IMG/VR virus record: IMGVR_UViG_2778261453_000008
Reading direction: 5' to 3' (one strand)
Length of the DNA stretch: 6,252 bases
DNA from: a virus
Taxonomy: Duplodnaviria > Heunggongvirae > Uroviricota > Caudoviricetes
Shown: in pieces, positions 1,138-5,343 of the stretch
Layout: each line of letters starts with the position of its first letter
Numbering within the stretch: position 1 is the first letter of the stretch
Made by a program: the position numbers and the translations under genes
The notes under the pieces: generated by a model
What the model saw: only the letters and a program-made list of their open reading frames with translations
What the model was told of the DNA's origin: nothing
Databases searched by the model: none

Positions 1138-1884
1138 TTACTTCACAACCCTCATATTGCTGACATTTGGACGCCAGCTATCCCAGTTAAACGTCACCCA
1201 TCGACCACCGTTCATGGTCATGCGGTCCATAATCCTCTCACCAAGAAGCGTACTCATTGCGGCATGATTCAGGTTTGTTAACATCCCGACACTGCACAGT
1301 GATGCTGTCCGGCGATCAATTATCTGGTGCAATACCACCTGCTCGTTTTTCGTCTCCCGCTGAACGCCTATTTCATCCAGGACCAGCAAATCAACCCCGC
1401 AAAGCTCCTGTAAAAATTTTTCCCCGGATTTGCCGTTGTCGTAGCTGTCATGCAACACGCTCATGACGTCAGACACGGTGACGATAATCACGCTGCGCCC
1501 CTTCACCATCAGCCGGTTGCCCATCGCCGCTGCAAGGTGATTTTTCCCGGTGCCGGTTTTACCGCTGAACACAAAATTCGTGCACCCGGTCATCAGTTCG
1601 TCAGCTATGGATTTGGCCTGGCTCAGCGCGTATTTTTGCCCGTCGTTCTGCACCTGATAATTTGCAAACGAGCATTTGCTGTGCAGAGGCTGGATGCCCG
1701 AACGATTCAGGATTTTTTCCACCCGCAACTGGCGATTCTGGCGGTTAATCTCCTCGCTGCGTTTTCGTCCTTCAGCAAGTTGCCATTCCCGCCACTCCTC
1801 CACCGTCCGGTACGGTGGAACCGACCCCTGTGGTGCAAGTCTGCGAATACGTTCAAGAACCCCAACTGCCGCAATGTTTTTCAT
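1138..1884 (-). CDS. DnaC-like replicative helicase loader (AAA+ ATPase; lambda P functional analogue, Rac YdaV position)
   Basis: 248-aa ORF with a DnaC-type Walker A (FSGKTGTGKNHLAAA) and Walker B (DLLVLDEIG). ATG at 1884..1882 lies 6 nt after the O-like stop (1891..1893), suggesting translational coupling. Confidence 0.9.
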   Translation of the reverse strand: MKNIAAVGVLERIRRLAPQGSVPPYRTVEEWREWQLAEGRKRSEEINRQNRQLRVEKILNRSGIQPLHSKCSFANYQVQNDGQKYALSQAKSIADELMTGCTNFVFSGKTGTGKNHLAAAMGNRLMVKGRSVIIVTVSDVMSVLHDSYDNGKSGEKFLQELCGVDLLVLDEIGVQRETKNEQVVLHQIIDRRTASLCSVGMLTNLNHAAMSTLLGERIMDRMTMNGGRWVTFNWDSWRPNVSNMRVVK

Positions 1885-1890
1885 GACACG

Positions 1891-2853
1891 TCACCCCCTG
1901 AATCCCGGCGGTATTTCAGTGTCCGGTTCAGAAATGTGATTCACGCAACGCTGCGCGGGCGAACGCCCCAGGCGGATAACCAGTTCATCCCATTTTTCCC
2001 GGAGTTTTGCCGGACTCATGATGTTTTTTACCCAGAACGAATCCCGCTGGAGACGCCCAAACATTTCACAAATTTGTCTGTGAGTTCTGCCATCCAGCAT
2101 CCGCATTGTGCGAACGTCATTGGCCCATGCAGTCCAGTTGGGTTCTTTCGGTCTAGTGATCTCGCCATCATCGCTGGCCGCCTGCTCGTAAAGACTCACG
2201 ATTCGTCCCCAGATCCACTGTGCGCACACCAAATCTTCCTGACTTCCCCACTGGCGTTTTTTCGCACTGAACACAACCGCGTCAGGGTGTCGGGTTAAAA
2301 AATCCTGTTCAGCCGTCTGCGGGTCCGGTTGCGAAGCGTCCGGACAAGAAGATCTTTTATCTGACGGATCAGGTTTTAATACTGACGGATCGGGGTCAAT
2401 CATCGCCCCCCTAATCGGCAGTTTTTTATCAACAGTTGATCCATCAAAATTTGACGGGTCAACCGTTGAGGGGTCAATATTTGACGGGTCAACTGTTAAC
2501 GGGTCATTTTTTGCCGGGCTAATTTTTCTTTTCGGTTTATATGACTCACGCGCCGCCGCAGCAGCTGCTTCGAGTTTTTCCACATTAAGCCGATAGATAT
2601 TGCTTACATTACGCCCACCGACCTTACGCTCTTCCTTCGTCAGCCAGCCCTCTTTCGCCAGTTCTGCAATAGCCGATTTCACTGTGGATTCACTTCTTGC
2701 ACCGATCTGACGCCGGATAGTTTCAATGGCAGGCCATGACACGCCCTCGTCATTGCTGTAGTCTGCAAGACGGGCCATAACCGCCACCCTGGATAAGATC
2801 ATGCCGGTGAAGGCGCACCCTTCCCAGACAAGACCATGAAGCTTGCTGCTCAT
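1891..2853 (-). CDS. Phage replication initiator, lambda O-like (Rac YdaU position), with ori iterons inside the coding sequence
   Basis: Long minus-strand ORF. The N-terminal part resembles a winged-helix DNA-binding domain (...LADYSNDEGVSWPAIETIRRQIG...KSAIAELAKEGWL...). The central linker is a periodic peptide (DPSNIDPSTVDPSNFDGSTVD) encoded by the iteron array. The track starts at GTG 2868; I prefer ATG 2853..2851, which has a GGGGG SD 4 nt upstream, while the GTG has none. Confidence 0.85.
   Translation of the reverse strand: MSSKLHGLVWEGCAFTGMILSRVAVMARLADYSNDEGVSWPAIETIRRQIGARSESTVKSAIAELAKEGWLTKEERKVGGRNVSNIYRLNVEKLEAAAAAARESYKPKRKISPAKNDPLTVDPSNIDPSTVDPSNFDGSTVDKKLPIRGAMIDPDPSVLKPDPSDKRSSCPDASQPDPQTAEQDFLTRHPDAVVFSAKKRQWGSQEDLVCAQWIWGRIVSLYEQAASDDGEITRPKEPNWTAWANDVRTMRMLDGRTHRQICEMFGRLQRDSFWVKNIMSPAKLREKWDELVIRLGRSPAQRCVNHISEPDTEIPPGFRG
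2361..2520. repeat. Iteron array (putative prophage origin of replication) with adjacent AT-rich stretch
   Basis: Six tandem 15-bp units start at 2436, 2451, 2466, 2481, 2496 and 2511 (ttgatccatcaaa / ttgacgggtcaac / ttgaggggtcaat / ttgacgggtcaac / ttaacgggtcatt / ttgccgggct), each with internal dyad symmetry TTGAC..GTCAA. Two related copies, ctgacggatc, lie at 2361..2370 and 2382..2391. An AT-rich stretch follows at about 2505..2550. Confidence 0.65.
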
Positions 2854-2875
2854 AAAACCCCCGAACACCGTGCTT

Positions 2876-3301
2876 TTAGTGCATCACCACAGCATTCCCT
2901 GCAGGGCCGCCGCGATTCATCTGGTCATACAAAACAACCGCTGACGCAACAAAATCATCGACATCCTTCACCAGCCGATCCCTCCGTTCGACGATCTCAC
3001 GGTAATATTCAGAACTGTGGCTGCGCATACGGGCCACCAGCAAAGGCGGCATCGCCTTTTCGATTGCCGGTAACAGAGCCTGCATTTTTTCAACAGCATC
3101 AGGGGTGTCTTTATCCAGCCAACGGAAAATTTTCTGGGTATTACGGGCCAGGGCTTCCGGATGGCTGTCGTCATACAGTTCCGGGAACGTCATTCCCAGT
3201 TCGAAATACGCTTTGGTAATTTTCGCAGCCGGTATTTTTTCGCCGTCCGGATGCGCCCAGGCATTCATCGCCATGCGGATGTGTTCATGCTTGATTTTCA
3301 T
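2876..3301 (-). CDS. ydaT: YdaT-like protein (Rac-type, toxic when derepressed)
   Basis: 141-aa ORF starting MKIKHEHI..., which matches my recollection of YdaT in length and N-terminus. ATG at 3301..3299 has an AGGAG SD (plus 3309..3313 reverse-complemented). It overlaps the end of the upstream ydaS-like gene by 17 nt. Confidence 0.8.
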   Translation of the reverse strand: MKIKHEHIRMAMNAWAHPDGEKIPAAKITKAYFELGMTFPELYDDSHPEALARNTQKIFRWLDKDTPDAVEKMQALLPAIEKAMPPLLVARMRSHSSEYYREIVERRDRLVKDVDDFVASAVVLYDQMNRGGPAGNAVVMH

Positions 3302-3566
3302 GAATCAAGCTCCTAGTAAGTGGTTGTGTTAACGTTTTGGTATCTTCCAGCTCGGGCCAAATATTCATCCAATCAAAAGGCCTTAGTTGCTGACGTGTAA
3401 CTTCACCATTACTGGCTCGCTCAATAAGGACACATAACGATGCCCCTAACATTTGACCTTTACTCAATGCCTTTCTTAGATAACCGATGCTAGTACCACA
3501 CTCACATGCAAACATACGCTGTTCATCTGACGAAAGAGAATTGAGAAATATTCTTAATTCTTCCAT
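3285..3566 (-). CDS. ydaS: YdaS-like Cro/CI-type HTH protein (Cro analogue of Rac-type prophages)
   Basis: 93-aa ORF with a C-terminal segment (...LCVLIERASNGEVTRQQLRPFDW...) typical of the YdaS family. ATG at 3566..3564 has an AAGGAG SD 5 nt upstream. It is divergent from the repressor gene and first in the replication operon. Confidence 0.8.
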   Translation of the reverse strand: MEELRIFLNSLSSDEQRMFACECGTSIGYLRKALSKGQMLGASLCVLIERASNGEVTRQQLRPFDWMNIWPELEDTKTLTQPLTRSLIHENQA

Positions 3567-3666
3567 AGCTACTCCTTAGTAAACACAGCAAAGGATACCT
3601 ACAGGTAAACAAAAGTCAATACCCTTGGGTTGTTTACCTTGCGGTAATCGCATCTATTATTTACCT
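3567..3666. promoter_or_regulatory. Divergent promoter/operator region between the ydaS-like and repressor genes
   Basis: Two palindromic sites of form (A/T)TACC-N4-GGTAA: O1 at 3595..3608 (ATACCtacaGGTAA) and O2 at 3634..3647 (TTACCttgcGGTAA), plus a half-site TTACC at 3661..3665 abutting the repressor ATG. Candidate minus-strand promoter for ydaS: -35 TTGACT (plus 3614..3619 reverse-complemented), 16-nt spacer, -10 TATCCT (plus 3592..3597 reverse-complemented), overlapping O1. Confidence 0.55.
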
Positions 3667-4086
3667 ATGGACAAATATGAATTTAGACGACAACAACTCA
3701 TCAAAATTCGTGATGAGAAATGCGATGGTAAAGCGGTTAACGTGGCCAGAAAGATCGGTCGCGAGCCTTCTTATGTATCAAGAATGTTGTACCCAGAGGG
3801 GAAAAAAGGAAAAAAACGGATCGCTGATGATATGGTGGAGATTATAGAAGAGTCCTTTGGGTTACCCCGGGGATGGATGGATGGTATCGTTTCATCATCA
3901 ACGAACACAGCCTCCAATTATGAAACAAGGGTTCTAACGCCACGACAACGTATTTTTTTAGATCTCTTAGACGAACTGCCAGAAAGTGAAGCGGATAACT
4001 TATTAAAAACTCTTGAAGAGAAAAAACAGTATTACAATATGATCTACGAAGAAATCCGTAAAAAGAAAGCACAAAACGCATCATAA
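3667..4086 (+). CDS. Prophage immunity repressor, RacR/DicA-like (N-terminal HTH, C-terminal ELPESE-type domain)
   Basis: 139-aa ORF from ATG 3667 (MDKYEFRRQQLIKIRDEK...KAVNVARKIGREPSYVSRM...). The C-terminal ...LDELPESEADNLLKTLEE... resembles DicA/RacR-type repressors. It is divergent from the cro-like ydaS and AT-rich. The track ORF begins at an upstream TTG (3625) with no SD, so ATG 3667 is preferred. Confidence 0.8.
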   Translation: MDKYEFRRQQLIKIRDEKCDGKAVNVARKIGREPSYVSRMLYPEGKKGKKRIADDMVEIIEESFGLPRGWMDGIVSSSTNTASNYETRVLTPRQRIFLDLLDELPESEADNLLKTLEEKKQYYNMIYEEIRKKKAQNAS

Positions 4087-4168: not shown

Positions 4169-4354
4169 TCCTTCCTTTCATACCAACCCACCCCGTCCCA
4201 CAGAACGCAGGGCAATACCTAGAGTTACCCGGCAGTGGTCAGGGGTTAAGTAGCCAGCCCGAGGCGTATGAACATGACGGCGGGAACACTTTATATAACA
4301 GCGCAGCAGGTTTTTAGTTCCGCTACCCCGGCGTTAAGGGGAAATGAGGTCAAC

Positions 4355-4507
4355 ATGGATACGCTCAATCTTGGCAACAACGAATCTCTGGTGTGCGGCG
4401 TGTTCCCAAACCAGGACGGTACGTTCACCGCAATGACGTATACCAAAAGCAAAACGCTTAAAACCGAATCTGGCGCGCGTCGCTGGTTAGCCAGAAACAC
4501 TGACTGA
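4355..4507 (+). CDS. Small conserved prophage protein, 50 aa (Rac YdaF/YdaG-like position)
   Basis: ATG 4355 with a GAGG SD (4346..4349) and 5-nt spacer; product MDTLNLGNNESLVCGVFPNQDGTFTAMTYTKSKTLKTESGARRWLARNTD. The track extends the frame up to ATG 4268, but that extension has rare codons (ATA, AGG, GGA) and contains a -10-like TATATA/TATAAC at 4293..4300, so I read it as promoter/5' UTR. Confidence 0.55.
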   Translation: MDTLNLGNNESLVCGVFPNQDGTFTAMTYTKSKTLKTESGARRWLARNTD

Positions 4508-4518
4508 TGAGGTTGACG

Positions 4519-4893
4519 ATGGAATTTAAAGATTTACCAATACCATTTCAGGAAATGGCAGCGAATATAGTTCGTTCTCAATTGGCTACTCTTGACCTGA
4601 GTACCGTAGAAAAAGAAACCATCGATAATATATCCGGTAACGTGCGCCGAGCCTTTATCGGGCTATACGAAGAGAAGCAGCTCTCTGATAACCAGGATTT
4701 ACATGAAAAATACTTTCTGGAATTAATGGACATCATTAATAAGGGATTTGGCCTGTTAATGAAAAAGAAAGGGATTCGAATAGCCCCCCTTGAAAATCAT
4801 TTTACAGCAAGCAGTATTAATTCCTGTGATTTAAAGCATCACACATCCGATAGGAAAGTTGAATCCACCTATAAAATATCAATTAATCATTAA
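4519..4893 (+). CDS. Hypothetical protein, AT-rich moron in the immunity region (124 aa; 128 aa if started at ATG 4507)
   Basis: ORF immediately after the small ORF. ATG 4507 overlaps its TGA by 1 nt, and ATG 4519 has a GAGG SD (4510..4513) with 5-nt spacer. GC is about 37% in a 119-nt sample I counted, versus about 58% in a sample of the DnaC-like gene. No transmembrane segment or recognisable motif; ends ...TSDRKVESTYKISINH. Confidence 0.6.
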   Translation: MEFKDLPIPFQEMAANIVRSQLATLDLSTVEKETIDNISGNVRRAFIGLYEEKQLSDNQDLHEKYFLELMDIINKGFGLLMKKKGIRIAPLENHFTASSINSCDLKHHTSDRKVESTYKISINH

Positions 4894-5343
4894 TTTATTC
4901 ACGGGTGAGATAGAGTGCGTGCGCCGGACACGGGTGAGCATCCGGCACTGACAGTTTACTGAAAGGATATTTCCCTGAAAAGTCAGACCATAACGCGAAA
5001 GCGTACGGCGAGGTAGCTGGTTCATAGATAGCCTGTCGTTAAATTTTGACCGTGCGCTTCCGGTTGTGGCAATCCGCGAAATGGCGCGGCGGTAAGTATG
5101 GCGGGGTTATTCCTTCCCCGTTGAGGACACCGGGTTGTCAGGTTGACCATACGCTTAAGTGACAACCACGCTGCAACGCCCTCTGTTATCAATTTTCTGG
5201 TGACGTTTGGCGGTATCAGTTCTACTCCGTGACTGCTCTGCCGCCCTTTTTAAAGTGAATTTTGTGATGCGGTGAATGCGGCTAAGCGCACGCGGAACAG
5301 TTAAAACCAAAAACAGTGTTATGGGTGGGTTCTCTGTATCCGG

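Follow-up and report, generated by a model that had tools for sequence, protein, structure and literature searches.

A 15-bp iteron array inside the initiator gene of an Escherichia coli prophage is a candidate lambda-type replication origin

The DNA considered here is a stretch of 6,252 bp (IMG/VR record IMGVR_UViG_2778261453_000008; Caudoviricetes), referred to throughout as the window, which is a segment of an Escherichia coli lambdoid prophage of the Rac type. About 94% of the window aligns to other E. coli chromosomes at 96-98% identity. Its minus strand carries a replication initiator gene followed by a gene for a DnaC/IstB-like helicase loader, and inside the initiator gene, in the part that encodes an inter-domain linker, six contiguous 15-bp units form an array of iterons (Table 1). 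The initiator gene is 99.7% identical to the copy in the Shiga toxin-producing E. coli (STEC) strain 2011C-4251, its open frame extends beyond the annotated start up to a GTG at 2868, and its current annotation is only "helix-turn-helix domain-containing protein," with no origin marked. The original prediction, made from the sequence alone, took the array for the binding site of the initiator and the start point of prophage replication. Comparison across relatives supports this through synonymous constraint on the DNA, association of the array with the N-terminal domain (N-domain) of the initiator, the disordered linker, and the adjacent DnaC-like loader. We put at roughly 0.78 the probability that the array supplies the iterons of a lambda-type origin, located where the initiator gene of the prophage itself encodes the linker.

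Tandem Repeats Finder reported a period of 15 bp (and of 30 bp) at 2429-2527 with 0% indels, and a repeat finder gave a start-to-start spacing of 15 bp across the whole of 2429-2518. The lag-15 self-match of the array was 52/75, the highest value among 200 shuffles being 38, and only lags 15 and 30 stood out. The 30-bp super-period arises from the alternation of ATA-type and CNG-type spacers. The units share the dyad core consensus nTTGA-N4(G/C)-TCAAn, and TTGA-N4-TCAA occurs exactly four times in the window against 0.21 expected, a count reached in none of 200 shuffles. The exact periodicity and the internal dyad symmetry that had been claimed for six units are thereby borne out, with four perfect cores. 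The two units nearest 2518 (2489-2518) are degenerate, so the count of six is fair but generous. On the coding strand the units read, for example, GAC CCG TCA AAT ATT and encode DPLTV DPSNI DPSTV DPSNF DGSTV, which agrees with the periodic DPSxx peptide described earlier and falls in a linker predicted to be disordered.

Other elements were also sought at the array. The list of open reading frames (ORFs) held no further frame of at least 50 amino acids (aa) overlapping 2361-2550. No promoter-like site was predicted in 2200-3590, and a promoter reading of the TTGAC-containing units was dropped on this account. There was no Rfam match at the array, the only one in the window being DicF, elsewhere. 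A DnaA-box-like 9-mer, TTTTCCACA, is found at 2576-2584 (plus strand), 58 bp from the array, in the NVEKL codons of the last helix of the N-domain. It was rejected as a DnaA box because its occurrence is within chance (at least two matches per window in 39 of 200 shuffles). These codons are specific to the initiator subtype of the window (type I, below), the type II relatives examined using other codons there, and the 9-mer is probably not shared across the family.

In Pfam searches the initiator matched HTH_36 (aa 30-76; E = 2e-6; 27.8 bits against a cutoff of 25), together with a sub-threshold match to DnaD_N. It matched neither Phage_rep_O, the lambda O family, nor DUF1376, the annotated family of K-12 ydaU, and NCBIfam gave nothing for it. 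PHROG 391, "replication initiation O-like," covers its full length (E = 2e-115), and PHROG matches at aa 200-307 are labelled "DnaD-like helicase loader / replisome organizer." The label "O-like" is functional naming, and the initiator is not a lambda O homologue. The kinship to lambda O implied earlier therefore does not hold for this HTH_36 protein, and nor does kinship to the Rac initiator, as K-12 Rac has another initiator family (DUF1376).

An AlphaFold2 model of the initiator, built on a 30-sequence alignment, comprises a winged-helix N-domain, a disordered linker and a helical C-terminal domain (C-domain). When the predicted disorder was mapped to DNA, the linker-coding part coincided exactly with the array plus the two boxes described below. 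Foldseek searches with the modelled N-domain returned generic winged helix-turn-helix regulators only, the matches being weak and to dimeric proteins of the MarR/PadR type (best E = 3.8e-3). This resemblance would be compatible with a dimer on a dyad site but is no proof of one. A sequence search of the N-domain against solved structures gave no meaningful match (TraM, E = 0.31). The N-domain is presumed to bind the iterons and the C-domain to contact the helicase loader.

To compare the locus with its relatives, we used 79 diverse loci, taken from a single genome of each species, and 80 loci from viral contigs that encode related proteins, together with annotated phages. Beyond the array, when read in the coding direction, two iteron-like boxes of sequence GATCCGTCAG are found, each containing a Dam site; both are conserved in the family, third codon positions included. 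These are the two related extra copies of the original prediction, described there as upstream in the sense of the plus strand, which is downstream in the coding direction. All 10 matches to the broader motif GAYSSNTCAR in the window fall within 2361-2492, where array and boxes lie, against 0.82 expected. The boxes sit in an AT-rich segment of low stability: the least stable 40-mers of the gene begin at 2343-2347, and 2344-2383 is 32.5% GC. Across the family the mean GC past the array end is 0.62-0.69 at +30 to +40, falls to 0.32-0.35 at +50 to +80 and returns to 0.62-0.66 at +100 to +110. This segment is also rich in GATC, with three sites within 41 bp in the window (2351, 2367 and 2388) and a family-wide density of 23/kb against 3.5/kb in the remainder of the genes. 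At least one GATC is present in 56 of 56 non-redundant loci and at least two in 49 of 56. Codon choice follows the same pattern, as Asp is written GAC rather than GAT by 152 to 41 in the array units, whereas before C in the downstream boxes GAT predominates over GAC (100 and 26, respectively), and it is this change that creates the Dam site.

This AT-rich, GATC-bearing module beside the array is a feature that the original prediction did not describe. It had instead pointed to an AT-rich stretch on the flank of the array nearer the N-domain codons. Such a stretch exists (2519-2550, 31% GC), but it is far weaker than the tract of lambda, its family mean GC is 0.42-0.45 with no strong conservation, and the conserved dip (0.32-0.35) is on the opposite side. 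From the family alignments, the conserved segment at about 2340-2395 appears likelier to be the unwinding element than the flank at 2504-2550, and by analogy with methylation-dependent origins the GATC sites in the boxes are possible Dam/SeqA control points.

The presence of this module also bears on the alternative that fares best, namely that the initiator does bind the sites but for regulation (autoregulation, a roadblock to transcription within its own gene, titration as a means of copy control, or handcuffing), with replication in truth starting elsewhere, for example in an intergenic AT-rich region. Selection at the DNA level and linkage to the N-domain, both set out below, fit such sites equally well. 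Iterons have known control functions in plasmids and in lambda, where the inhibition phenotype needs ITN3-4 (PMC3349717), and 40-mers of at most 25% GC are available at 3645-3685, 3993-4055, 4850-4914 and other places in the window. We nevertheless regard this alternative as unlikely. An AT-rich GATC module adjoins the array in 56 of 56 non-redundant loci; such a module is required by an origin but not by a mere operator. In all lambdoid examples characterised so far, repeats inside the initiator gene constitute the origin (PMC7466680, PMC8022706), and the other AT-rich segments belong to the immunity/early-left region, whose exchange is independent of that of the replication module.

Whether the repeat is maintained as DNA or as peptide was addressed with 56 non-identical arrays comprising 294 units, with copy numbers of 3-9, mostly 5-6. 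The register in this analysis was set by TCA and the analysis is hence partly circular, so codon counts were redone with a purely peptide-based definition of the residues. The third codon positions of the unit (9, 12 and 15) carry 1.6, 1.1 and 1.1 bits, equal to first and second positions, while the residue at codon 2 is free (A/P/L/G/T/V/R). By the peptide-based definition, the first Ser of the unit is encoded by TCA in 170 cases and TCG in 16, with no other codon, and the second by TCT (151), TCC (25), TCG (11) and TCA (1), AGY being absent. Array Lys residues use AAA 188 times and AAG 3 times. In the remainder of the same genes all six Ser codons are in use and AAG makes up 30% of Lys codons.

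The dyad core stays constant while the peptide changes, as in DPS (GAC CCG TCA), EGS (GAG GGG TCA) and DGS (GAT GGA TCA, that is, TTGATGGATCAA, still a dyad). The variants EGL, DPP, VPS and ERS are further peptides over the constant core, and DAS is also seen. In type I linkers, those of the window type, Pro (CCN) and Gly (GGN) are the sole residues at codon 2, and Glu is followed by Gly (24 cases) and never by Pro (0 cases), as expected of a palindromic site with a C-run or G-run at its centre that can be read from either strand. In a set of 36 distinct close relatives, diversity at third positions measures 0.012 for the array and likewise 0.012 for the boxes, whereas the N-domain has 0.056 and the C-domain 0.062; among 5000 random subsets of third positions there was none this low. 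Diversity at positions 1+2 of the array (0.014) is about that at position 3, whereas the domains show the usual position-3 excess. Taken at the level of sequence comparison, these patterns indicate selection on the DNA rather than on the peptide. Copy number changes in whole 15-bp units, with close relatives encoding proteins of 320, 315, 310 or 305 aa and linkers of 204 or 189 nt, so iteron number is polymorphic within E. coli; in Klebsiella relatives up to about nine SDxSK units are found.

It is very improbable, given this pattern, that the repeat is a low-complexity pentapeptide linker generated by slippage, selected if at all for flexibility and without a function as DNA. The predicted disorder, the whole-unit copy variation, which slippage would give, and the abundance of Pro, Gly, Ser and Asp, typical linker residues, would all suit that account. 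It is disfavoured by synonymous positions that are nearly fixed across genera while residues vary, by the different and mutually exclusive codon sets of the two Ser positions, by dyad symmetry that survives non-conservative peptide changes, and by array diversity that is equal at positions 1+2 and 3 and five-fold under the third-position diversity of the domains. An unrelated N-domain, moreover, has an unrelated repeat at the equivalent position. That case is Escherichia phage PhiR42_1, in whose "replication protein O" the C-domain of the window protein is joined to an unrelated N-domain and the linker position carries repeats of its own: a 23-bp unit (CATyrGGnCATTTTGAmCyrATG) recurs about five times and a 12-bp unit (TATTCTCTGTAG) three times. 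These arrays are probably the origin of that module type.

The distribution of the array was then compared with that of the two initiator domains. All loci with the HTH_36 "VMARLADY" N-domain contained a 15-bp periodic stretch (lag-15 score 29-41/45), whereas 16 loci with only the C-domain in common gave background scores of 17-23/45. N-domain and array also occur together in many loci whose proteins are without the window-type C-domain motif. BLAST matches of relatives end at query positions 468-501, equivalent to 2358-2391 of the window, at the conserved boxes. As judged from these alignments, the C-domain appears to be exchanged independently of N-domain plus array. The consensus of the units also follows the N-domain subtype, since type I (window; …ERKxGGRNxSN) pairs with nTTGA-N4-TCAAn and ATA/CNG spacers and type II (SfIV; …RRxGNRNASN) with TCTGAC-N3-TCAAAA. 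The immunity genes beside the initiator vary among array-bearing loci (RacR or an unrelated repressor, YdaS/YdaT or cII/Cro types), and a repressor-type protein is for that reason unlikely as the binder. That the sites belong to some other protein (a host factor, a phage repressor, a Cro/YdaT-like regulator, or a partition or packaging protein) and are merely linked to the N-domain codons is hardly credible: adjacency alone could co-inherit array and N-domain, recombination breakpoints being in the conserved box region, and the units do include TTGAC, which matches the sigma-70 -35 consensus over its first five bases, but the immunity genes differ between loci that share the array, neither a promoter-like site nor an Rfam match nor a DnaA-box-like 9-mer beyond chance was found, and the HTH_36 N-domain is the only protein constantly accompanying the array.

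Several points weigh against the array being an origin. The covariation of N-domain subtype and unit consensus is essentially one split between two subtypes, supportive but not decisive. A formal Mantel-type correlation covers only 10 loci, those holding both the N-domain and the window-type C-domain motif (Spearman 0.50 for the N-domain and 0.23 for the C-domain), and the presence/absence pattern is the stronger argument. Recombination history could account in part for how little the linker varies among close relatives. With no less than about 32% GC across 40 bp, the AT-rich segment falls short of the 38-bp tract of lambda, and far more AT-rich stretches are present elsewhere in the window, outside the replication genes. 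With a 15-bp period, adjacent sites look towards nearly opposite sides of the helix, whereas classical plasmid iterons are phased at roughly 22 bp. The searchable literature yielded no binding or origin-mapping data on this initiator family, and in the phage collection no isolated phage carries a window-type initiator over at least 80% of its length, so this prophage lineage may be defective.

The arrangement was compared with characterised origins. Lambdoid origins consist of iterons in the middle of the initiator gene and an AT-rich tract, with four iterons in lambda and six in Shiga toxin (Stx) phages (PMC7466680). In lambda the repeats of ori-lambda lie in the part of O that encodes the linker between two folded domains (PMC7466680, PMC3349717), with iterons at 39044-39119 and, to their right within rightward-transcribed O, an AT-rich sequence of 38 bp (PMC3349717). 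The window follows the lambda plan on this comparison: dyad-symmetric repeats of the initiator gene stand between a presumed DNA-binding N-terminal part and a presumed loader-recruiting C-terminal part, an AT-rich tract comes after them in the coding direction, the loader gene is immediately downstream, and iteron number varies among relatives. The order of N-domain, iterons, AT-rich tract and C-domain is that of ori-lambda. The differences lie in the proteins, with an HTH_36 initiator and a DnaC/IstB-like loader instead of lambda P, and in geometry, as the units of the window are contiguous at 15 bp (a 12-14-bp dyad plus 1-3 bp) while lambda has four iterons of 18-19 bp with spacers. The AT tract of the window is also weaker, lies beyond a G+C-rich spacer that sets it apart from the array by about 30 bp, and includes further iteron-like boxes as well as a GATC cluster.

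Gene 18 of P22 and gene 18 of phage L each contain internal repeats of their own that are taken as the origin (PMC8022706). They resemble the window in having initiator-specific repeats in their own coding region, the six short imprecise repeats of phage L being similar to its short units, and differ in repeat sequence, in protein family, and in the use of a DnaB-type helicase (gene 12) where the window has a DnaC-like loader. The Rac prophage of K-12 shares the layout of a divergent repressor, YdaS-like, YdaT-like, initiator and DnaC-like (YdaV homologue) genes followed by DUF1627, but its YdaU (DUF1376) is unrelated to the HTH_36 initiator, and the repeats in ydaU have neither sequence nor spacing in common with those of the window. 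In the middle of K-12 ydaU we observed dispersed repeats of AAnCAGATGTTCAA and a perfect 11-bp inverted repeat, ATGTTCAAACA/TGTTTGAACAT (4263-4563 of that locus), which are candidates for the iterons of oriJ; the literature covered mentions only the active oriJ of Rac and gives no sequence position for it.

Among other origins, oriC and P1 oriR depend on Dam methylation, with 13-mers in oriC and a GATC-rich unwinding region in P1. The window resembles them in its GATC cluster, kept by codon choice in an AT-rich segment beside putative initiator sites, and differs in having only 2-4 GATC sites and no good match to the 13-mer consensus of oriC. Classical plasmid iterons (R6K, RK2, F, P1, pSC101) are 17-22 bp long, recur with a phase of about 22 bp in intergenic DNA and usually come with DnaA boxes. 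The window shares with them a dedicated winged-helix initiator and multiple direct repeats adjoining an AT-rich region, but its period is 15 bp, its sites are coding and it has no significant DnaA box. The searchable literature contained no description of iterons of the HTH_36-initiator family, the SfV genome paper (PMC134923) being outside its coverage; the SfIV genome paper names only a "replication module," and searches with the unit sequences gave unrelated primer and short hairpin RNA matches. A lead from phi80 gene 15, prompted by a homologue named "Replication protein 15," was dropped, as phi80 was not among the 60 of 63 N-domain-matching phage records listed and a literature search found nothing relevant.

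If the array is an origin, a plausible course of events can be drawn up. Upon derepression the initiator would be translated, and its winged-helix N-domain, probably as a dimer, would bind the 12-14-bp dyad units nTTGA-N4-TCAAn (a single unit being TTGACCCGTCAA), which stand head to tail every 15 bp. The initiator would also bind the two GATCCGTCAG boxes 40-70 bp beyond the array, and the resulting nucleoprotein complex would destabilise the AT-rich, GATC-bearing segment around them (about 2344-2395). The C-domain would then recruit the adjacent DnaC-like loader and host DnaB, leading to theta replication. We infer each of these steps, including initiator binding to the array, unwinding at 2344-2395, any action of Dam and SeqA, and the start of replication here. 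As the sites fall within codons and the linker has only to be flexible, what the DNA requires would dictate the pentapeptide repeat of the linker. A more speculative and rather doubtful extension is that the 15-bp packing and the 30-bp super-period place successive initiator dimers on alternating faces of the DNA and assemble them into an unbroken helical filament instead of a wrapped O-some, with firing gated by Dam methylation and SeqA sequestration at the GATC boxes. Were this true, replication of the prophage would be coupled to the methylation cycle of the host, and gain or loss of units would tune origin strength and linker length together.

The genes surrounding the initiator are listed in Table 1. 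The helicase loader matched Pfam IstB_IS21 (E = 7e-19) and PHROG 50, "DnaC-like helicase loader," and among NCBIfam models it scored 506 bits with PRK12377 (cutoff 389) and 299 bits with the DnaC equivalog, under its cutoff of 357. The position of the repressor is occupied in the window by an ORF of hypothetical function and in the strain with the 99.7%-identical initiator gene by RacR, indicating that the immunity region is exchanged independently of the replication module. Divergent promoter-like sites are present near this ORF, at 3592-3619 (minus) and 3633-3660 (plus). A full-length DicF antisense small RNA is encoded at 5195-5246 (plus; Rfam RF00039, 72.4 bits against a gathering score of 48); the annotation of a 97.6%-identical record places a ydfC-like gene to one side of it and a truncated dicB, kil and a gene for an exonuclease to the other. 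A 282-aa ORF at 1450-2298 (plus), antisense to the DnaC-like gene and the C-domain of the initiator, is unannotated in related records and presumably spurious.

Table 1. Positions of the features discussed, in window coordinates except where another locus is named
Feature	Position	Strand	Remarks
Replication initiator gene	1891-2853	minus	320 aa from the PGAP start (coding sequence in a 99.7%-identical record)
N-domain, winged-helix, aa 1-105	coding 2539-2853	minus	AlphaFold2 pLDDT (per-residue model confidence) 75-90; H-H-H-H-beta-beta topology
Disordered inter-domain linker, aa 109-169	coding 2347-2529	minus	AlphaFold2 pLDDT <50
C-terminal helical domain, aa 178-297	coding 1963-2322	minus	Confident in AlphaFold2
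Iteron array, six contiguous 15-bp units	2429-2518		Inside the minus-strand initiator gene, linker-coding part
Six units of the array		plus-strand register	TCAACAGTTGATCCA, TCAAAATTTGACGGG, TCAACCGTTGAGGGG, TCAATATTTGACGGG, TCAACTGTTAACGGG, TCATTTTTTGCCGGG
Perfect TTGA-N4-TCAA dyad cores	2436-2447, 2451-2462, 2466-2477, 2481-2492		
Single-unit sequence			TTGACCCGTCAA; putative target of an N-domain dimer
Downstream box 1	2382-2391	minus	GATCCGTCAG; iteron-like, with Dam site
Downstream box 2	2361-2370	minus	GATCCGTCAG; iteron-like, with Dam site
Candidate DNA-unwinding element	~2340-2395 (2344-2395)		AT-rich, low stability; both boxes, three GATC sites
N-domain-side flank, moderately AT-rich	2519-2550		31% GC; 2504-2550, 36% GC; role uncertain
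DnaC/IstB-like helicase-loader gene	1138-1884	minus	Starts 7 bp downstream of the initiator gene
DUF1627 gene		minus	After the loader gene in the layout
YdaT-like gene	2876-3301	minus	
YdaS/Cro-like gene	3285-3566	minus	
Repressor-position ORF	3625/3665-4084	plus, divergent	No Pfam match; RefSeq "hypothetical protein" WP_000362153
PhiR42_1 repeat arrays	3003-3134 and 2964-2999 in the PhiR42_1 locus		

DNA resembling the initiator gene was found in 3265 of 5426 complete E. coli genomes, 1514 of which hold a full-length copy, many of them Shiga-toxin-producing. The wider family extends across the Enterobacterales and includes viable phages of Shigella, Klebsiella, Citrobacter and Yersinia, and the arrangement described here is also present in the viable phages SfII, SfIV and phiNP and in Klebsiella phages, with the gene annotated as O or primosomal. 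Matches to plasmids were set aside as evidence of autonomous replication, as most are megaplasmids or mislabelled chromosomes with prophages. One 15,977-bp circular "plasmid" of E. coli Z1322PEC0161 (NZ_CP148542.1) consists only of the immunity-replication-nin-lysis segment of a prophage with an identical iteron array; it has no plasmid replicon type listed, and its layout resembles that of lambda-dv. It was not counted as autonomous replication either, since homopolymer indels split its initiator and ydaT-like genes, which suggests a noisy assembly, and the record may be that or an excised or over-replicated segment.

The array gives a concrete candidate origin for a very common prophage replication module, and the consensus of nTTGA-N4-TCAAn every 15 bp followed by GATCCGTCAG boxes is usable for origin annotation in relatives. 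The finding extends the well-known rule of lambda and overturns nothing; the initiator family, the DnaC-like loader and the contiguous 15-bp geometry are what differ. Reading the array as an origin explains the odd pentapeptide repeat in the initiator protein and makes it a clean case of DNA-binding-site constraint dictating protein sequence, in which palindromic sites in either orientation give DPS or EGS. The conserved GATC-bearing module, as a candidate site of unwinding, offers a testable lead.

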